In this document: positions 12,039-20,119 of the stretch, one piece after another
How positions within the stretch are numbered: position 1 is the stretch's first letter
Layout of the letters: every line of letters begins with the position of its first letter
Source of the DNA: an uncultured Spirochaetota bacterium
Lineage (GTDB): Bacteria > Spirochaetota > Spirochaetia > SZUA-6 > Fen-1364
NCBI GenBank assembly: GCA_963745235.1
Contig: CAVUXE010000052.1
Location: 160,001-224,000, forward strand
DNA length: 64,000 bases
Direction of reading: 5' to 3'
The notes under the pieces: generated by a model
Database searches by the model: none
Told to the model about the DNA's origin: nothing
The model's input: only the letters and a program-made list of their open reading frames with translations
Program-made: the position numbers and the translations under genes

Positions 12039-12074
12039 GTCGTAAGATCAAACAAAAGCCTGAGGAGGTTGCGG

Positions 12075-12392
12075 ATGGCAAGCCTGGTGGCAGACAGGGC
12101 GAAGGCCGTGCACCTGGCGGATACGCTCAAATCCCTGGCCCACCCCATCCGGCTGCGGATCGTGGGGCTCCTCTGCGTTGAGGACCTTTCGGTGACCGTC
12201 ATGGCTGAGAGGCTGGATGTGCCGCAGGCAATCCTGTCCCAGCAGCTTCGGATCCTCAGGATGAGCGGTCTTGTGGAGTCTTTTCGGGCGCGCGGCCGCG
12301 CAAGCTACCGTCTGGGTGAGCCGCGGCTGCGGCAACTGGTGAAGTGTCTTGAGGGATGTCCCTCGAATCGAATGCAAGGAGGACTGGCATGA
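12075..12392 (+). CDS. ArsR/SmtB-family transcriptional repressor
   Basis: LKSLAHPIRLRIV, LSQQLRILR; C-terminal CLEGC. Confidence 0.9.
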   Translation: MASLVADRAKAVHLADTLKSLAHPIRLRIVGLLCVEDLSVTVMAERLDVPQAILSQQLRILRMSGLVESFRARGRASYRLGEPRLRQLVKCLEGCPSNRMQGGLA

Positions 12393-12931
12393 GCGTCAAC
12401 GTCGAAAGGGAGCTCGCGGAGCTCAAGGCAAAGGTCGAATCCACGCCCGGAACGGGGAACAAGCTTACCATGGTTGTCTTCTCCGGGAGCCTTGACCGGC
12501 AGCTCGCGGCAATGATCATCGCCACGGGCGCGGCGGCCATGGGGATGCAGGTTGTGCTTTTCTTCACCTTCTGGGGCACCTCCGCCCTGCGGGACCCGAA
12601 CAGGAAGGTGAACGGAAAGAACATGATGTCGAAGATGTTCGGGTTCATGCTGCCAAAAGGCACCAAGGCCCTGAAGCTTTCCCAGATGAACATGGCGGGG
12701 ATGGGAACGGCGATGATGAAGGGGCTCATGAAGAAGAAGAACGTCGCGAGCCTGGAGCAGCTCTTCGAGGTAGCGTCGGAGCTTGCCGTGAAGGTCTACG
12801 TCTGCGAGATGTCCATGGACCTGATGGGCTTCAAGAAAGAGGAAATGATCCAGTACCCGAACCTCGAGGTCTGCGGAGTGGCGACAATGCTCGCGCACGC
12901 CAAGGAGTCCTCGCTGCAGTTCTTCATCTAG
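12389..12931 (+). CDS. DsrE2-type (DsrE/DsrF/DrsH-like) sulfur carrier
   Basis: VFSGSLD, FFTFWG, YVCEMSMDLMG. Confidence 0.88.
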   Translation: MSVNVERELAELKAKVESTPGTGNKLTMVVFSGSLDRQLAAMIIATGAAAMGMQVVLFFTFWGTSALRDPNRKVNGKNMMSKMFGFMLPKGTKALKLSQMNMAGMGTAMMKGLMKKKNVASLEQLFEVASELAVKVYVCEMSMDLMGFKKEEMIQYPNLEVCGVATMLAHAKESSLQFFI

Positions 12932-12968
12932 GGCCACGCGCGCAGCGGCGCGTGAGAAAGGAAACATC

Positions 12969-13208
12969 ATGGCGGACTATACGATAGCAAAGACACTCGA
13001 CTACAAAGGCCTTGCATGTCCCATGCCCGTGGTCAAGATAAGCCAGCAGATCGGGACGGTTTCGGTGGGGGACGTGATCGAGGTGCACACCACGGATCCC
13101 GGCTCGCTGGCTGACTTTCCCGCCTGGGCAAAGACAATCGGGCACACAATCCTCGAGACGAAGCAGGAGCCCGGCGTCATCAAGATCTTCGTCAAGCGGA
13201 TGAAGTAG
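12969..13208 (+). CDS. tusA: TusA-family sulfurtransferase
   Basis: LDYKGLACPMP, TDPGSLADFPAW. Confidence 0.9.
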   Translation: MADYTIAKTLDYKGLACPMPVVKISQQIGTVSVGDVIEVHTTDPGSLADFPAWAKTIGHTILETKQEPGVIKIFVKRMK

Positions 13209-13217
13209 GGGGGAACC

Positions 13218-14093
13218 ATGCCATCCGTCTCGGATGCGGTATCCGCCGCGTCTCAGGCAACAGGCCACGCCGCCGCGCAGCAGGCGGCACAGGCGGTGAC
13301 GGCTGCGACGCAGGCGGCCCCTCCGGCCGCCGCGGACGCGGTCACCTCGGCCTCCCACGCGGCGGCAGCCGCGGGAGGACCGCTGGCTGCCGTTTACTAC
13401 TTCATCATGGTCCCCATGGTCTACCTGGCCATCCTGGCGCTGCTGGTGGGAATGGTGTGGAGGATCGTCGTCATCCTGCGCTCCCCGGCGCAGTCGTACC
13501 CGCTGACCCTCTACCCGGCGGCCAGGTCCCGCGTGTTTGCCGCTTTCCGGGACGCTTTCGGGATGAGGCAGGTCCGCGAGCACAAGCCTTTCTTCTGGGT
13601 CTTCCTGGTGATCTTTCATGTCGCGTTCGTGCTTCTCATCCTGGCCCACCTGGACATCATCCCCGCCCTGCGGATGCTCCCGGCAGCCTCGAAGCACATG
13701 ATCGGCGCCGGCAGCGTCGGCGTGGCGCTGACTGTCTCCCTCATGTACTTCATCCTGCGGCGGTTTCGAAGCCCCGTGCGGGAAATATCCACGCCGGGGG
13801 ACTACCTGCTCCTGCTGCTCCTGCTGTTCCTTTTCCTGCTCGGAGACATGATCAGCTGGTCCAACTCCTGGGGCGCGCACGGCTTCGTCATGACCAAGAA
13901 GGATTTCGCGAGCTACTTCGACGGCCTGGCCCGGTTCACGTTCGCGGACCCGCGCGCCGTGCTCCATGGATCGCACTATCACTTCGTCGTGCTCCACGTC
14001 CTCCTGGCCAACGTCTTCTTCATCTCCTGCCGTTCACCAAGATCATGCACACCTTCTTCAGCGATTCCAATCAACCTGCTGCGGAGGAGATAG
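13218..14093 (+). CDS. NarI/DsrM-like di-haem cytochrome b with Ala-rich N-terminal extension; two compensating indels near the 3' end
   Basis: Five TM helices; His pair FHVAFVLLILAH; LHV in the last helix with PFTKIMH in the shifted frame near 14030-14050. Confidence 0.85.
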   Translation: MPSVSDAVSAASQATGHAAAQQAAQAVTAATQAAPPAAADAVTSASHAAAAAGGPLAAVYYFIMVPMVYLAILALLVGMVWRIVVILRSPAQSYPLTLYPAARSRVFAAFRDAFGMRQVREHKPFFWVFLVIFHVAFVLLILAHLDIIPALRMLPAASKHMIGAGSVGVALTVSLMYFILRRFRSPVREISTPGDYLLLLLLLFLFLLGDMISWSNSWGAHGFVMTKKDFASYFDGLARFTFADPRAVLHGSHYHFVVLHVLLANVFFISCRSPRSCTPSSAIPINLLRRR

Positions 14094-14096
14094 AGT

Positions 14097-15348
14097 ATGG
14101 ACGCGGCAACAAGCACCAGGCTCAAGGGGCTCTTCGAAACGAAGCTCAACGGCGCAATGCGGCTGTACCTGGACACCTGCGCCCGCTGCGGGGTCTGCGT
14201 GGAGGCCTGTCACGTCTACGCATCCATGCCGCAGCTGCGGTATACCGCCGTGGGGCGTGCCGAGGTTATCCGCAAGATCTTCAAGCGCTACTTCAAGCTG
14301 CAGGGGAAAATTGCCCCCTGGCTCGGAGAGGTCCTCCCCATGGACGAGCAGACCCTGGCCGCCGTCAGCGATGCCGCGTGGTCGTGCACGGGCTGCCGGC
14401 GCTGCATGGCCTTCTGCCCGTTCGGCATCGACACGCAGATGATCATGTCCATCGCCAAGCTGCTGCTTATCGGCGCCGACAAGGAGCCCAAGCTCCTTAC
14501 CATGTTGTCGGACATGTCGATTGCGAAGGCAGAAGGGGCTGAAGAGACCAGGGCCAGCTTCGACCAGGCGGTCCTGAATCTCGCCCCCGAAATAGAGGCG
14601 ATCTGGCCGGCGTCTCCCCAGAGGCCCACCATCAGCGTCGGGGCCATGGGCGCAGACGTGCTGTACGTCGCCCTGGCCGGCAAGCATTCCATTGTCCCCG
14701 CCGCGGCCATCATGAACGCCGCCGGCGAGAAATGGACTTTGAGCCTATTCGAAGCAGTGAACTTCGCCGCGTTCCTGGGCGACCCCAAGAAGATGCAGAT
14801 CATCGCCCGGCGCATTCACGACGAGGCCATCCGGCTGAAGGTGAAGGAAGTGGTCATCGTGGAGTGCGGGACCGCCTTCCGGGTGATGAAGTACATGACC
14901 GGCTACCACCCGTTCAAGGTCTTCGCGTTTGTCGAGCTGATTGCGCGCTACGTGCGGGAAGGGCGCATCACGCTGGACCGCTCACGCCTTGCCGGGCAGG
15001 ATCACCTACCATGATCCCTGCCAGATCGCCAGAAACGGCGGGGTCATTGAAGAGCCTCGCCTGGTGATCCGTCAGCTGACGGACAACTTCGTCGAGCTGA
15101 CTCCCAACAGGGAGAACAACTGGTGCTGCGGAGGGGGCGGCGGGCTGGTCGCCATGGGGGAAAAGGAGTTCCGCATGAGGTCCGGCCGGGTCAAGGCGGA
15201 GCAGATGAAGGCGTCGGGAGCGGATGTGATCTGCACGGCGTGCGAGAACTGTCACACGCAGCTCACCGACCTCAACGAGCACTACGGCCTGGGGATGAAG
15301 GTCGAGTTCCTTTCCCGCCTGGTTGCGAACGCCCTCGGAAAGCCTTGA
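14097..15348 (+). CDS. DsrK/HdrD/TmcB-like Fe-S CCG-domain oxidoreductase (one frameshift near 15000)
   Basis: CARCGVCVEAC, CTGCRRCMAFCP, ECG, TYHDPC, CCGGGGG, CENC. Confidence 0.88.
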
Positions 15349-15369: not shown

Positions 15370-15858
15370 CTAGCGGGAGGGAAGGGCGCGCACCGCCGCG
15401 GCCAATCGGTCAATCGCGTCTGCCTGGATGGCCGAGATGTCGCGAGCCGGATGAACGAGGCTTCTCACGAGGATCCGGTCCAGCAGGGAAAGCTTCTCCA
15501 GGGACAGATTCCCTCCCATCAGCTCGCGCGCGAACGCGTGGGCGGAGAGCCACGGGGGAAAGGCCTCCTGAAGCTGCGCCATGCCGCGTTCGCCGGTGTA
15601 GAAGCTGCTGATGAACAGCCCTGCCTTTTTCGACAGGAGGCGTTCGCGTTCCTGCTCGCAGAAGCTTACGACCTGTCTCTGGATCTTTCCCCCGTATATG
15701 GAGCCGCCTATGAGAATGACGTCGAACTCTCCGAGTGATGGCCGACCACGCGCTCGCAGATCGTGAACAACCGTGTCGGCTGAGATTTTCCGCGCCAGGG
15801 CCCCCGCGCACGACTGCGTGGCGCCGTAGCGGCTGCGATAGGCGATCAGCACCTTCAC
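15370..15858 (-). CDS. Flavodoxin-domain protein (HemG/Flavodoxin_5-like)
   Basis: IAYRSRYGAT, IGGSIYGG. Confidence 0.82.
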   Translation of the reverse strand: MKVLIAYRSRYGATQSCAGALARKISADTVVHDLRARGRPSLGEFDVILIGGSIYGGKIQRQVVSFCEQERERLLSKKAGLFISSFYTGERGMAQLQEAFPPWLSAHAFARELMGGNLSLEKLSLLDRILVRSLVHPARDISAIQADAIDRLAAAVRALPSR

Positions 15859-16160
15859 TTCGGACCCCCCTTCCCGTCCCGAGCCGCCGCCGCGAGACTC
15901 TCTCTCACGTGATACAGGCGATTGCGCAGGTACAGCACGATGTCGATGCTCACCATGAGCGCATTCAGCGCATAGAGATAAATGACCAGGTCATAACGGT
16001 AGATGATCTTGTGAAGGATCCCGGCGACGTATCCGACCACGATGACCAGGAGGAAGGGCAGGCTCTTCCCGGCCACCTGCCGCGTCTTCCACGACTTGTA
16101 GATGGAGAATGGCCAGGCAGCGCCGAAGCACACAAGCATGATGATCTCGAAGATGCTCAT
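15855..16160 (-). CDS. Small three-helix membrane protein (PQ-loop/SemiSWEET-like)
   Basis: CFGAAWPFSIYKSWK...GKS, three TM helices. Confidence 0.65.
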   Translation of the reverse strand: MSIFEIIMLVCFGAAWPFSIYKSWKTRQVAGKSLPFLLVIVVGYVAGILHKIIYRYDLVIYLYALNALMVSIDIVLYLRNRLYHVRESLAAAARDGKGGPK

Positions 16161-16187
16161 TCAGGTGCCCCCGATAAGGAATGTATA

Positions 16188-16922
16188 CTACAGGTAGCCA
16201 AGCGACGCCATCGCTTTTTCAAGGGCGATACCCGCCGCGGAAGATGCAAGCGCGTCAGCGCTTCCGATCGCTGCTTCGATGGAGGGGTCATGGGGAACCT
16301 CGACGACGCGGGCAACCCCTGCCCTCCGCGCAAGGTCCCTTACCCGGCCGGCGTCTCCCTGCACCATGTTCGCTATGACCGCGGGCACGGAAACATGAAG
16401 CTCCCTCAGCACCGAGAGAAGCCTCTCCACCACGGAGACGGACACCACCGCCGGGGTTGAAACCACCAGCGCCTCCAGCCTCGGCACGAGCCGCGAAAGG
16501 TCCAAGATCTCCTCTCCCATTCCGGGAGGCATGTCTATGAGGAGCAGCTCCGCGGGGCCCCACATCGTGACCGCCAGAAGCTCCAGGATGGCGTCAGAAA
16601 CCTCGGCGCCCCGCAGAAGAAGGCCGCGTTCTCCGGTGAACGGGGCAACGCTCATCAACGACACGCCGTCCGCCACCGGCAGCGGCAGGATCCCGTGTTT
16701 CTCCTCGGGAAGACGAGGCCTGGTTCCAAGAAAAAGATGGGCCGAAGCTCCCTGCATGTCGAGGTCGAGAATTCCGACCCGTCGTCCGCCCCTGGCGAGG
16801 ACAAGAGCTGAAACGACAGTGCACATCGTCTTGCCCACCCCCCCCTTCGCGGATGAGAAGGCGATGACGCGCTGTATGCCTGCAAGCCTCTTTGCGACGA
16901 CAGCGGTTCGCGGATCGGTCAA
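16188..16922 (-). CDS. Mrp/MinD-family P-loop ATPase, probable ATPase-type HypB
   Basis: AKGGVGKT, DLDMQG, DMPPG; no C-terminal CxxC; TTGA overlap with the hypA stop. Confidence 0.8.
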   Translation of the reverse strand: MTDPRTAVVAKRLAGIQRVIAFSSAKGGVGKTMCTVVSALVLARGGRRVGILDLDMQGASAHLFLGTRPRLPEEKHGILPLPVADGVSLMSVAPFTGERGLLLRGAEVSDAILELLAVTMWGPAELLLIDMPPGMGEEILDLSRLVPRLEALVVSTPAVVSVSVVERLLSVLRELHVSVPAVIANMVQGDAGRVRDLARRAGVARVVEVPHDPSIEAAIGSADALASSAAGIALEKAMASLGYL

Positions 16923-17338
16923 ACGCACCCTTCCCTGTTGACTACTTCCAGGCTGGTGATGCTCACGCCCCTGCCCTTTTTCAGCCGGTAGTCGGGACTT
17001 CCACACGCCGGGCAGCGGATGAACGCGTGAGCGGATTCAGGAAGAAAGTGGATTGCCTCGCGCTCCTCATCCGTGAGCCCGCGACTCTCCTCCAGGTCCC
17101 ATTCCCTCTGGCATTTTTCGCACCCAAAGGTCGCTTTCTCCGTCTCCAGGTGGAAAATGCCTCGGGAATACGGCCTCTCCGAAAGGAGGGTCTCCAGCGC
17201 AAAGGAAAAGATCTCCCTGTCGATTGCCTGCAGCTCGCCGATGAGGACAGTCACGCCTCGAAGGCAGGACGGGTCCCTGCTGCCCATGGCGGCCGCCGTC
17301 GCCTCCACCACGGCGTCCGCGAGAGCCCATTCGTGCAC
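16919..17338 (-). CDS. hypA: Hydrogenase nickel-incorporation protein HypA
   Basis: (M)HEWALA, GELQ, CEKC and CPAC zinc sites, GRGV. Confidence 0.93.
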   Translation of the reverse strand: MHEWALADAVVEATAAAMGSRDPSCLRGVTVLIGELQAIDREIFSFALETLLSERPYSRGIFHLETEKATFGCEKCQREWDLEESRGLTDEEREAIHFLPESAHAFIRCPACGSPDYRLKKGRGVSITSLEVVNREGCV

Positions 17339-17339
17339 C

Positions 17340-17645
17340 CTAGAGCCTCGAGATGAGGTCCCTGACCCAGGGATCAACGACGGAGTAGATCCGCCGGTTT
17401 CCTTCCACCCGGGAAGAAACGATATGTTCGCGCTTGAGCACCGCCAGGTGCTGCGAGACCACGGGCTGGGATTCTTCTACGCAGTGCCAGAGGTCCGAGA
17501 CGCAGGGTTCGCTGCGCTCGATGGCGCAGAGAAGCTTCAGGCGAATGGGGTGGCCGCAGACCTTCAGCTTGCGGGCGATTGACGGCATTGACCGCCGCAG
17601 GTCCATGCGGATGATGTCCTTGTCCAGAAGCTTGTTTTTTTCCAT
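17340..17645 (-). CDS. ArsR/SmtB-family transcriptional regulator
   Basis: LKVCGHPIRLKLL, SQPVVSQHLAVLK. Confidence 0.88.
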   Translation of the reverse strand: MEKNKLLDKDIIRMDLRRSMPSIARKLKVCGHPIRLKLLCAIERSEPCVSDLWHCVEESQPVVSQHLAVLKREHIVSSRVEGNRRIYSVVDPWVRDLISRL

Positions 17646-17698: not shown

Positions 17699-18946
17699 AT
17701 GAATCGGGTGTACCTCGACTGGGCGGCTTCCGCGCCCCCGGAGCAGGCAGCCATCCAGGAGGCCGCGGAGGTGTCCCTGCAGTGTTTTGGAAATCCTTCC
17801 TCCCCTCATGCCGCGGGAAAGGAAGCCGCGGAACGCCTGGAGAACGCGCGCGCACGGCTGGCGCGGCTGATCGACGCCTCGGCCGCGGAGATCGTGTTCA
17901 CCTCGGGGGGGACCGAATCCAACACATCGCTCCTGCTCTCCGTTCTCGACCGCTATCGCCTGGGTGGCGTTGAGCGGCGAAAAGCGCGCGTGATCACAAC
18001 TGCCGTCGAGCACGCATCCATCCACGACCAGGCCCTCGCCCTGGAGGCGTTGGGGATGACCTGCACGGTGGTAAAGCCCCAGCCGAACGGAATCGTTGAC
18101 CCGCAGGCAATTGCGGATGCCCTTGATGCTGAGACCGTGCTGGTTTCCGTGATGCTCGTCAACAATGAGACGGGCGCCATCCAGAGAATCGCGGAAATAT
18201 CCCGCCTCATTCGAGAGTTCTCCGCGCGCCGCGGCAGGAGGATCATCCTGCACACGGACGCGGTCCAGGCCTTGGGCAAGATCCCCGTTTCCGTCGCGGG
18301 CCTCGGAGTGGATGCCGCGTCTTTCAGCGCTCACAAGGTGGGCGGGCCCCGCGGGATAGGTGCGCTCTACCTGAAAGCGGGTGTGGCCCCCGGCTTCCTT
18401 TCCATTGGCGGCGGACAGGAGTCGGGGCGGCGCCCCGGCACGGAGAATGTCCCCGGCGCCTGCGCCTTTGCCAAAGCTGCCGAGCAAAGAGCCGCGAAGC
18501 TGACGGACAACCACGCCTGTGCAGCCGCGCTGGCGGACCGTCTTGTGACGGGCCTGAAGGAGATACGAGCGTCCCGCATCTTTCCGGAAAGCCGAACCGG
18601 CAGGGACTCCGAGGCTTTTTCCCCGTACATCGTCTCCGCGGGGTTCCCCCCCCTCACCGGGGAGATCGTGGTGCGGGTCTCGGACGCCCAGGGGTTCTGC
18701 ATTGCCACCGGGTCGGCATGCTCCACGAAGAAGAAGGACCACACCAGGGTGCTGGAAAGCATGGGGATGGATCACCAGACGGCGCTTTCGGCCATCAGGA
18801 TCTCCATCGGCCCTTCCACCATCGAGACAGAGATCGACGGCTTCCTTGCCATGCTCACGGAGCAGGTTCCGCCGCTCCTCTCCATCTCCCAGGGGCTTGG
18901 CGAAAGCCATAAGGCTCGCGACGAGCGCGCCGGGGCGCGCGGATGA
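17699..18946 (+). CDS. iscS: Cysteine desulfurase (IscS/NifS class)
   Basis: YLDWAAS, GNPSS, FTSGGTE, SAHK, TGSAC. Confidence 0.9.
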   Translation: MNRVYLDWAASAPPEQAAIQEAAEVSLQCFGNPSSPHAAGKEAAERLENARARLARLIDASAAEIVFTSGGTESNTSLLLSVLDRYRLGGVERRKARVITTAVEHASIHDQALALEALGMTCTVVKPQPNGIVDPQAIADALDAETVLVSVMLVNNETGAIQRIAEISRLIREFSARRGRRIILHTDAVQALGKIPVSVAGLGVDAASFSAHKVGGPRGIGALYLKAGVAPGFLSIGGGQESGRRPGTENVPGACAFAKAAEQRAAKLTDNHACAAALADRLVTGLKEIRASRIFPESRTGRDSEAFSPYIVSAGFPPLTGEIVVRVSDAQGFCIATGSACSTKKKDHTRVLESMGMDHQTALSAIRISIGPSTIETEIDGFLAMLTEQVPPLLSISQGLGESHKARDERAGARG

Positions 18947-20119
18947 GCGAGCCCCGCCGGCAGACAGACGGCCTGTTCCTGATCAAGTACGGTGAGATAG
19001 CGCTGAAGAGGCGAAACCGCGGGGCATTTGTGAAAAGCCTCAAGGACTCCATTCGCGCCCACCTGCCGGACCTTCCATTCTCCGTGCATGAGACGTTTCA
19101 CCGGGTCTTTGTCGGGTTCCGCCCGGAGGACAAGGATCGGATTGCCGAAGCTCTTGGCCGCACCTTTGGCGTCGTCTCTTTCTGCGAAGCGCTGCGCGCT
19201 CCCCGGGAAATGCCCGCAATAGAGGAAGCAGCCATCGGTCTGGCCGGCCGCCTCATTCGAGACGGGAACCAGGTTCAAGGCCGAGGTGAGGAGGGCGGAC
19301 AAGTCCTTCCCGCTCACATCGTACGAGATAGCGTGCAGGATCGGTGACACGCTGCGCGCTCGCTTCCCCGGGTTGACCGTGGACGTGCATACCCCTGATT
19401 GGGTATTGTCCATAGAAATCCGCGAGCATGCGTACCTGTATGGGCCAGAGCTCCCCGGACCATACGGCCTGCCGGTGGGCAGCTCGGGGAAGGGAATGCT
19501 CCTTCTGTCAGGCGGAATCGATTCGCCGGTGGCCGGATGGATGATGGCGAAGCGAGGGATGTCACTGGAGGCCGTCTACTTCCATTCCCCCCCGTTCACC
19601 TCGGAAAAGGCCCGGGAGAAGGTTGAGATGCTTGCGCGGATACTTTCCCGCTATGCCCCGGGCATCGTCCTGCACGTGGTGAACTTCACGCCCGTGCTTG
19701 CGCGCATCAAGGAAAAGGCGAAGGACGAGGAGGTCACTCTGCTGCTGCGGGCGTGCATGATGCGCTTCGCGACGCTGCTTGCGGAGCGCCGGGGCGCAGA
19801 GTGTCTGATAACGGGTGAGAGCCTGGGCCAGGTCGCAAGCCAGACGGTCGAAAGCATCCATTTCACGGGAATGCTGTCTGACCTGCCGGTGTTCCGGCCC
19901 CTGATCGGAATGAACAAGGAAGAGATCATTGCCGTTGCGAGGAAGATAGAAACGTTCGACACGTCCAACCTTCCCTACCAGGACTGCTGCGTTCTTTTCT
20001 CCCCTGAGCACCCGCTGATTCACCCGGAGGTCCGCCGGATGAAACGCGCGTACGATTGCCTCGTGGCTGAGGCGCTCATCGTGGACGCTCTGGAGAAGGC
20101 GGAGCTCGTTTCGGTGTGA
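18943..20119 (+). CDS. thiI: tRNA 4-thiouridine synthase (frameshift near 19270)
   Basis: IKYGEIALK, RRADKSFP, SGGIDSPVA, GESLGQVASQT, DCC. Confidence 0.92.

Follow-up and report, generated by a model that had tools for sequence, protein, structure and literature searches.

A cytochrome b encoded in a 64,000-nucleotide stretch of DNA from an uncultured Spirochaetota bacterium (assembly GCA_963745235.1, contig CAVUXE010000052.1, positions 160,001 to 224,000; hereafter the window) carries, ahead of its first transmembrane helix (TM1), an alanine-rich N-terminal tail with three seven-residue sites, DAVSAAS, QAVTAAT and DAVTSAS, that resemble the sites at which ApbE attaches flavin mononucleotide (FMN). 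The gene stands in an operon with genes for the sulfur carriers DsrE2 and TusA and for a DsrK-like iron-sulfur (Fe-S) subunit. We consider it moderately probable that these sites, which sit outside any carrier domain, are flavinylated by ApbE and serve as the port through which a Tmc/Hmc-like complex, linked to TusA and DsrE2, exchanges electrons with the periplasm; the flavinylation is putative, and the direction of electron flow and the substrate are proposed with lower confidence than the flavinylation itself.

Conserved flavinylation-like sites in the N-terminal tail

The tail spans residues 1-57, of which 25 (44%) are alanine, in line with the Ala-rich segment of about 55 residues described in an earlier note on this DNA. 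The same note had placed the three motifs within 13233-13355, had found none with the canonical glycine and had seen no lysine or arginine until after TM1, all of which proved accurate: position 5 of the sites is A, A and S, and the first basic residue of the whole protein is R82, just past TM1. The sites are 7-residue units repeated 15-19 residues apart (coordinates in Table 1), and all three have Ser or Thr at position 4, Ala at position 6 and a Ser or Thr acceptor at position 7, as an ApbE site does. Among 200,000 composition-preserving shuffles of the tail, none contained three motifs and 5.4% contained one.

Conservation was evaluated in two data sets: the best 120 homologues, 118 of them usable (P0027 and P0083 are N-terminally truncated and were dropped), and 55 related loci from a scan of one genome per species, with TM1 located in 52 (L053, L056 and L057 were dropped from these counts). 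The 55 loci belong mostly to uncultured Spirochaetota, together with Rectinema subterraneum SURF-ANA1 (L033), six Firmicutes and one Pseudomonadota metagenome-assembled genome. R. subterraneum SURF-ANA1, which is in culture, has QAVSAAS as its single site. Homologue tails are 15-94 residues long (median 50), consist of 37% Ala and hold up to five motifs. The pattern D..[ST][GAS]A[ST] occurred 165 times in the 118 tails, compared with 1.9 +/- 1.3 times (maximum 6) in 300 shuffles of each tail, an enrichment of about 85-fold; at least one copy was present in 109 of the 118 tails versus 2 of the 118 membrane bodies, and the canonical Gly form in 9 of the tails. At the species level, 42 of 52 loci had at least one site, 28 at least two and 10 the form [ST]GA[ST]. 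The conservation of DAV[ST]xA[ST] in homologue N-termini, on which the earlier note had made its proposal depend, is borne out by these counts. The equivalent of the third motif, DA[VT][ST][SAG]A[ST], stands ahead of TM1 across the family, and the motif is shared between Spirochaetota and Firmicutes, whose tails otherwise differ.

Positions 4, 6 and 7 were built into the search pattern, and the family-wide figures for them therefore add no weight. With the first position left free, the pattern matched 224 sites, 74% of them led by Asp (only 5.8% of tail residues) and 13% by Gln. Position 5 of these sites was Ala in 71%, Ser in 23% and Gly in 6%, leaving 94% without the canonical Gly. The relatives with [ST]GA[ST] span Treponemataceae and Firmicutes; one tail has DATSGAT twice, and AVSGAS is also seen at the same place. 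According to the available text of the review by Fan and Fraaije (PMC12052999), seven residues suffice for ApbE, best at the N- or C-terminus; the Asp is called strictly conserved, yet its replacement by Ala had a minor effect; Gly-to-Ala and Ala-to-Val cut flavinylation to about 50%, the Gly-to-Ala figure coming from one model substrate; and Ser is accepted as the attachment residue less well than Thr. Both the canonical forms in relatives and this residual flavinylation support the suggestion in the earlier note that the window sites are Gly-to-Ala/Ser variants, and the published tolerance would be compatible with real but less efficient substrates.

Site number varies along the family. Expanded tails, in proteins of 312-323 residues (P0010, P0014, P0017, P0009, L004), have up to five sites built from a repeat of about 13-19 residues, and in these relatives site number appears to evolve by tandem duplication. 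A Firmicutes branch (P0110, P0111, P0118, P0119; L017, L019, L030) has a longer N-terminus, with about 45 residues containing hydrophobic stretches and Lys, followed by two sites that are often canonical DATSGAT. In this branch, whose tail is not free of positive charge, the extension may be a signal-peptide-like export element.

Translation of the tail

The tail is translated. The ATG of the cytochrome gene lies 9 nucleotides (nt) past the tusA stop (TAG, 13206-13208), behind a Shine-Dalgarno-like run, and a start codon first appears 7-14 nt behind the tusA stop in the majority of the 52 loci. Differences in tail length among the window and five close relatives are all frame-preserving, and the ratio of nonsynonymous to synonymous substitution rates (dN/dS) was 0.08-0.21 in the tail versus 0.04-0.09 in the membrane body (15 pairs from 6 sequences; tail dS saturated in 3 pairs). 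The kept start, the in-frame indels and the low dN/dS imply that the tail is protein under purifying selection. Contigs of two metatranscriptome libraries span 12900-13266 and 13339-13505; this is weak RNA evidence, as it documents presence in an RNA library and shows neither transcription nor the start.

The tail might instead be an annotation artefact, with the true start at Met64 or Met67, placed just ahead of TM1. In-frame ATG codons do exist at both residues and distant relatives start there; such a start would, however, leave a 190-nt gap behind tusA, in conflict with the conserved upstream ATG and Shine-Dalgarno-like run, with the frame kept through all indels and with dN/dS far below 1. 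We regard a start downstream of the tail, which the earlier note had named as a way for its proposal to fail, as scarcely credible.

Alternatively, the tail could be a functionless low-complexity spacer, its motifs arising by tandem duplication in GC-rich DNA. The high Ala content of the window and homologue tails, the wide range of tail lengths and of motif numbers (0-5) and the existence of tail-less lineages would all be expected of such a spacer. Against it stand the dN/dS values, the roughly 85-fold enrichment of the motif over shuffled tails, its persistence between Spirochaetota and Firmicutes and its recurrence in a paralogous family of 29% identity (see below), which together make a functionless spacer distinctly improbable.

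A NarI-type cytochrome with a predicted periplasmic N-terminus

The protein that bears the tail has the NarI fold. It matches PF02665 (Pfam Nitrate_red_gam) at 28 bits against a cut-off of 22.9, and its AlphaFold2 model (90-sequence alignment; mean predicted local distance difference test score, pLDDT, 85.5) has NarI 1q16_C as its best fold match in the Protein Data Bank (Foldseek probability 1.00; template modelling score, TM, 0.68, target-normalised; E 5e-3). The top eight Foldseek matches are all NarI chains (probability 1.00, E 5e-3 to 1.7e-2, target-normalised TM up to 0.69), with mycobacterial EtfD next; these E-values, at best 5e-3, exceed the 1e-3 line of the tool, and the fold call leans on the probability of 1.00, the eight consistent NarI matches and the Pfam match. 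The earlier label of DsrM/NarI-like thus stands as to NarI fold and Pfam family. As to DsrM, the match is weak, with the NCBIfam equivalog cut-offs missed for DsrM (NF038037, 19.5 of 300 bits), TmcC (NF045723, 33.4 of 240) and HmcE (NF045716, 23.1 of 275); the NCBIfam NarI model also gave a weak match, far below its cut-off. Alignment to the TmcC and HmcE profiles begins at residues 58-60, which implies that the tail is an addition to the family core. Distant NarI-like proteins (at most 45% identity, 215-250 residues) begin at TM1 without a tail, and a search for fused or longer forms of 511-2000 residues, which we rate as weak evidence, found none.

Three of the four histidines expected as haem ligands in a NarI-type protein are present as assembled (H134, H144 and H260, all candidate ligands). 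The fourth, the partner of H260 at consensus position 278, is nearly invariant in the family and missing from the assembled sequence, where it was lost through a pair of indels described below. The resulting spacings of 10 and 18 residues are those of the four NarI haem ligands, of which TM2 and TM5 carry a pair each.

The N-terminus of NarI is periplasmic. In the window protein, Lys plus Arg number 0 in the tail, 8 in loop 1, 2 in loop 2, 4 in loops 3 and 4 each and 5 at the C-terminus, a distribution that follows the positive-inside rule and therefore points to an N-terminus outside and a C-terminus inside, the latter suiting a cytoplasmic Fe-S partner. The N-out topology proposed in the earlier note agrees with both the charge counts and the NarI fold, and the tail is accordingly predicted to lie in the periplasm, exposed where ApbE acts.

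This placement is strengthened by a second NarI-like cytochrome of the same genome (contig C35), which has a Sec-type signal peptide followed by DATTSAS sites. It shares 29% identity with the window cytochrome over 239 columns, the tails being in register with TM1, and its gene neighbours encode a Fer4_8 protein, a MetV-like protein (DUF5981), methylene-tetrahydrofolate reductase and a B12-binding protein. Sorting the 78 homologues of this paralogue by length separated 46 proteins of at least 270 residues, 45 of which carry between one and four copies of D..[ST][GAS]A[ST] within their first 180 residues, from 32 shorter ones with neither the motif nor four CxxCH; no motif site was found past residue 180 in any of the 78. 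Eight of the 78 have four CxxCH in the same N-terminal extension (precomputed Pfam PF02085, some PF14522 or PF14537), and seven of these eight keep one motif site directly behind the signal peptide. Since a cytochrome c domain must be exported, the extension of these NarI-like proteins is periplasmic. The family thus appears to have one exported position on NarI-like cytochromes that is filled by a haem c module, by motif arrays or by both; cytochrome/flavin exchange of this kind is described for other systems in the available text of PMC8238504. The gene neighbourhood suggests that the paralogue locus could be a membrane link between methylene-tetrahydrofolate reductase and periplasmic flavin or haem c.

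A cytoplasmic tail, touching the DsrK-like subunit or TusA/DsrE2, is in our estimate very improbable. The window-family tail has no signal peptide, and the adjoining genes encode cytoplasmic partners, as would fit such contacts; this reading is contradicted by the absence of Lys and Arg from the tail versus eight in the loop after TM1, by the NarI fold and by the paralogue, whose motifs lie behind a signal peptide and beside a cytochrome c domain.

ApbE and the case for flavinylation

The genome encodes two ApbE proteins (PF02424, 289 and 269 bits), on contigs C9 and C62. As the window lies on contig C52, the earlier statement that it contains no apbE gene is correct, and the copy elsewhere in the genome for which that note had advised a search exists twice over. 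Read by eye, both ApbE N-termini are lipoprotein-like signal peptides; no recognisable substrate gene was found beside either gene.

All six-frame open reading frames (ORFs) of at least 80 residues (6.49 million residues) were scanned for the pattern [DEQN]A[VTIL][ST][GAS]A[ST]. Seven ORFs matched, and the window cytochrome was the only one with three copies. The others were the second NarI-like protein (two sites), two DUF2271 proteins, a 141-residue exported protein and two single matches that look like chance. Flavinylation of DUF2271 by ApbE has been shown experimentally, according to the available text of PMC8238504, and the two DUF2271 proteins and the 141-residue protein are likely ordinary ApbE substrates of this organism. 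Their canonical sites share the frame D-A-V-[ST]-x-A-[ST] with the tail, and so differ from the tail sites only at the Gly.

Several results weigh against flavinylation of the tail. Known flavinylation sites are usually described in loops, and AlphaFold2 models the tail, called flexible in the earlier note, as helices of moderate confidence (pLDDT 62-76). A Pfam search of the cytochrome found no match to FMN_bind, DUF2271 or DUF3570, leaving it without a flavin-binding domain that would position a tethered FMN near the haem. Position 5 of the window sites departs from Gly in all three, one of the three is led by Gln rather than Asp, and the acceptor is Ser in two, the less favoured residue in the available text of PMC12052999. 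Ten of the 52 loci are motif-free, and the tail is thus dispensable in some lineages: seven (L034, L035, L037, L040, L049, L054 and L055) have short N-termini of 3-12 residues ahead of TM1 in the same operon context, while the other three have a tail without the motif (L043), are cut by a contig end (L011) or are frame-broken (L052). No ApbE homologue was found within 10 kb of the cytochrome in the 55 loci (tblastn, E<=1e-5, both ApbE proteins of this genome as queries), so that guilt by association lends no help. ApbE was present in all 10 family-bearing genomes tested, 4 of them with a tail-less protein, and in 8 of 14 control genomes; with tail-less carriers and controls also having ApbE, its presence is necessary and not discriminating. 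Finally, the literature searched yielded no published experiment on any family member. A predicted complex of ApbE (C9 copy, residues 24-340) with flavin adenine dinucleotide, Mg and tail residues 1-62 scored 0.06 and weighs neither for nor against.

The tail could also be exported and conserved with its motif serving another purpose, such as a different Ser/Thr modification (for example glycosylation) or a periplasmic docking peptide. Conservation and topology show the motif to be important outside the cytoplasm and say nothing about what it carries, and the lack of a nearby apbE in the 55 loci and of the canonical Gly in 94% of sites would be consistent with a non-flavin role. The positions left open by the search nevertheless all match an ApbE site, with Asp leading 74% of sites, position 5 always small and Ala and Ser/Thr behind it; 10 of 52 loci have [ST]GA[ST] at the corresponding site; the same pattern is found in the DUF2271 proteins of the genome; and in the paralogue family the motif shares its extension with a redox domain, cytochrome c3. 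A non-flavin role is in our view rather unlikely, and flavinylation by ApbE is preferred.

One specific modification was considered and rejected. The Bacteroidetes-type O-glycosylation motif is D-[ST]-aliphatic; the Asp of the tail sites precedes Ala, not Ser or Thr.

Two FMN_bind matches were also found (L058, L059). In this genome a cluster on the minus strand of contig C99 (195738-199195; L064:5739-9195), with a UbiA prenyltransferase, a 691-residue NDH-2 and a polyprenyl synthase, resembles the Gram-positive flavin-based extracellular electron transfer module. In that NDH-2 the domain is followed by an Ala-rich array of repeated [ST][GA]A[ST] sites and then by membrane helices in a second frame, a frame change that is possibly another indel. 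For quinone biosynthesis, neither MenA over the cut-off (four UbiA-family matches at 62-82 bits) nor MqnA was found in this 85.7%-complete genome.

A proposed Tmc/Hmc-like complex linked to sulfur carriers

The order DsrE2, TusA, cytochrome, DsrK-like gene is kept in nearly all sufficiently long loci, with the DsrE2 gene upstream of the cytochrome in nearly all. Like the cytochrome, the Fe-S subunit, scored in two pieces because of a frameshift, misses the equivalog cut-offs for DsrK (NF045796, 155.7 + 83 versus 400 bits) and TmcB (NF045724, 106 + 118 versus 735). No match to DsrC or DsrA was found in the 85.7%-complete genome, which implies that the operon is not the DsrMK of a sulfite reducer.

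In the mechanism that we propose, the cytochrome would be the membrane subunit of a two-subunit redox complex, with the DsrK/TmcB-like Fe-S protein as the cytoplasmic catalytic subunit, and its genes would share a transcript with those of the sulfur carriers DsrE2 and TusA. The tail would be inserted with its N-terminus in the periplasm, where lipoprotein ApbE would act on the three sites, linking FMN through a phosphoester to the final Ser/Thr of every site (Ser12, Thr31 and Ser46). The result would be a short chain of as many as three tethered FMN, devoid of any domain, beside the outer haem, and electrons could pass between periplasmic or extracellular partners and the flavins, and from there through the two haems b to the Fe-S clusters of the DsrK-like subunit. 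The end point might be a disulfide, persulfide or trisulfide on TusA/DsrE2, or the flow might be reversed. The tail would thereby stand in for the multihaem cytochrome c (TmcA, HmcA, DsrJ) of Tmc, Hmc and DsrMKJOP.

Those three complexes, TmcABCD, HmcABCDEF and DsrMKJOP, resemble the proposed one in pairing a NarI-type cytochrome b with a DsrK/HdrD-like CCG Fe-S subunit, and TmcC/HmcE/DsrM and DsrK/TmcB/HmcF are the best NCBIfam matches of the two window proteins. In Tmc, Hmc and Dsr complexes the outer haem is supplied by a redox module in the periplasm, with the DsrM-DsrJ interface treated in the available part of 10.64898/2026.08.25.746951. The window operon differs in encoding no cytochrome c subunit, in its TusA and DsrE2 partners and in scores far below the equivalog cut-offs. 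NarI and HdrE (of HdrDE) share with the window cytochrome the fold, the Pfam family and conserved His pairs with spacings of 10 and 18 residues, but start at TM1 without a tail, and NarI binds NarGH rather than a CCG protein.

Among known ApbE substrates, FMN_bind proteins (NqrC, RnfG, PplA, NosR), DUF2271 and DUF3570, as presented in the available text of Meheust et al. 2021 (PMC8238504), are likewise extracytoplasmic, have D-x-x-[ST]-small-A-[ST], in which the final Ser/Thr is the presumed acceptor, and serve extracytosolic electron transfer, the role proposed here for the tail; the tail sites, in contrast, are bare of a carrier domain and have Ala or Ser, not Gly, at position 5. Closer in form are the engineered flavin-tag (Tong et al. 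2021, as summarised in PMC12052999), in which ApbE needs no more than a short motif at an unstructured terminus, and the natural C-terminal extensions of FMN_red proteins, which are reported in the main text of Huang et al. 2024 to carry one or two sites per protein and to deliver the flavin into an existing flavin-binding site. Unlike these extensions, the tail belongs to a haem protein with no known flavin site and has three sites, a number that reaches five in relatives. Multi-flavinylated proteins (Meheust et al. 2021; two characterised in PMC10339131) also have several covalent flavins per exported polypeptide and a proposed role like that of multihaem cytochromes, but are described in the available texts as strings of complete FMN_bind domains; the window protein lacks FMN_bind and has 7-residue sites only, in cis on a membrane cytochrome.

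The available text of PMC8238504 ties five membrane classes to flavinylation (NapH-, MsrQ-, PepSY-, DsbD- and NQR/RNF-like), NarI-type not being among them, and its authors note that some ApbE substrates remain unidentified. Their screen, as described there, covered genes within five positions of ApbE, FMN_bind, DUF2271 and DUF3570; none of these genes was found near the cytochrome operon, which that screen would therefore miss. A full-text literature search found no paper linking flavinylation to NarI, DsrM, DsrK, HdrD, TmcC, TusA or PF02665, and the main texts of Meheust et al. 2021 and Huang et al. 2024 make no mention of NarI, DsrM, cytochrome b, heterodisulfide or TusA, although their supplementary cluster tables could list PF02665 proteins.

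Table 1. Positions of the tail, the operon and related genes. Window coordinates unless a contig is named.
Feature	Position	Strand	Basis
ArsR-family regulator, first gene of the cluster	12069-12392	+	Pfam HTH_5 E 1.8e-9; same position in many of the 55 loci (tblastn)
DsrE2-type sulfur carrier	12356-12931	+	Pfam DrsE_2 E 6.4e-49; NCBIfam SulfCarrDsrE2 83.5 bits, below cut-off 210
TusA-type sulfur carrier	12969-13208	+	Pfam TusA E 1.7e-20; conserved directly upstream of the cytochrome gene
G-rich Shine-Dalgarno-like run, 4 nt ahead of ATG	13207-13213	+	Sequence reading; TAGGAG at the same place in close relatives
NarI-fold di-haem cytochrome b, 291 residues as assembled	13218-14093	+	PF02665, AlphaFold2, fold match
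N-terminal tail, residues 1-57, Ala-rich, no Lys/Arg, predicted periplasmic	13218-13388	+	Composition, charge counts, dN/dS
Motif 1, DAVSAAS, residues 6-12, candidate acceptor Ser12	13233-13253	+	Kept as DAVSAA[ST] in close relatives
Motif 2, QAVTAAT, residues 25-31, candidate acceptor Thr31	13290-13310	+	Kept as QAV[ST]AA[ST] in close relatives
Motif 3, DAVTSAS, residues 40-46, candidate acceptor Ser46, about 12 residues before TM1	13335-13355	+	Most widely conserved site
TM1, residues 58-81, then loop with 8 Lys/Arg (cytoplasmic by positive-inside rule)	13389-13460	+	AlphaFold2 helices, charge counts
His134 and His144, 10 residues apart, candidate haem ligands on TM2	13617-13649	+	Invariant in 90 aligned sequences
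His260, candidate haem ligand on TM5	13995-13997	+	Nearly invariant, at least 90% of sequences
-1/+1 indel pair, window-specific, changing 13 residues in the last helix, the fourth conserved His among them	14025-14064	+	Alignment to L003, L005, L006
DsrK/TmcB/HmcF-like cytoplasmic Fe-S subunit with CCG domain, two frames split at about 14994	14097-15348	+	Pfam Fer4_8, CCG
Second NarI-like cytochrome, Sec-type signal peptide then DATTSAS sites	Contig C35:244424-245542 (L060:4428-5393)	-	Genome pattern scan
Two DUF2271 proteins (DAVTGAT, DAVSGAT; lipoprotein-like N-termini) and 141-residue exported protein (DAVSGAS, no Pfam match)	C83:15409-16143, C3:12244-13146, C89:29645-30076 (L062, L063, L061)		

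Assembly quality and neighbouring genes

Compared with the related loci L003, L005 and L006, the window is one base short near 14025 and has one base extra near 14063, and one additional base near 14993 breaks the DsrK-like gene in two. Contigs from independent DNA runs of different studies, one from a peat metagenome (X1) and one from a soil metagenome (X2), are 95-100% alike and intact at all three places, with one extra base relative to the window at 14026 and one fewer at 14061; an RNA-library contig (X10) is intact at 14994. Because contigs of independent runs carry intact versions, the three indels are probably assembly errors, and they leave the tail untouched.

Downstream of the operon (15370-17645, minus strand) lie genes for a Flavodoxin_5 protein, a membrane protein of 101 residues that matches no Pfam family, a P-loop NTPase of the Mrp/NUBPL type, HypA and another regulator of the ArsR family. 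Further on, a cysteine desulfurase-like class-V aminotransferase (17699-18946) is followed by ThiI split into overlapping ORFs of different frames (18943-19347, ThiI_fer; 19286-20119, THUMP and ThiI), a split that may be another single-base assembly error.

Implications for flavin-based electron transfer

ApbE flavinylation is known on folded carrier domains; if the proposed flavinylation of the tail is correct, natural substrates would include bare 7-residue sites with Ala or Ser in place of Gly, and motif searches that require the Gly would undercount ApbE substrates. The junction of haem b and flavin would constitute a new electron route into or out of the cell without cytochrome c, and a widespread, uncharacterised operon of DsrE2, TusA, cytochrome b and DsrK-like genes, present in 55 species-level genomes, would tie sulfur-carrier redox chemistry to the periplasm. 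More tentatively, and with somewhat more doubt than confidence, NarI-type cytochromes with in-cis strings of bare sites might represent a sixth class of flavinylation-linked transmembrane conduit, in which flavins replace, or in the paralogue family accompany, multihaem cytochrome c, and which in peat and soil spirochaetes and in Firmicutes may join extracellular redox pools to cytoplasmic TusA/DsrE2 and methylene-tetrahydrofolate reductase chemistry. Such transmembrane wiring of electrons, through putative flavin tags on a cytochrome tail, would be of a kind not described before.

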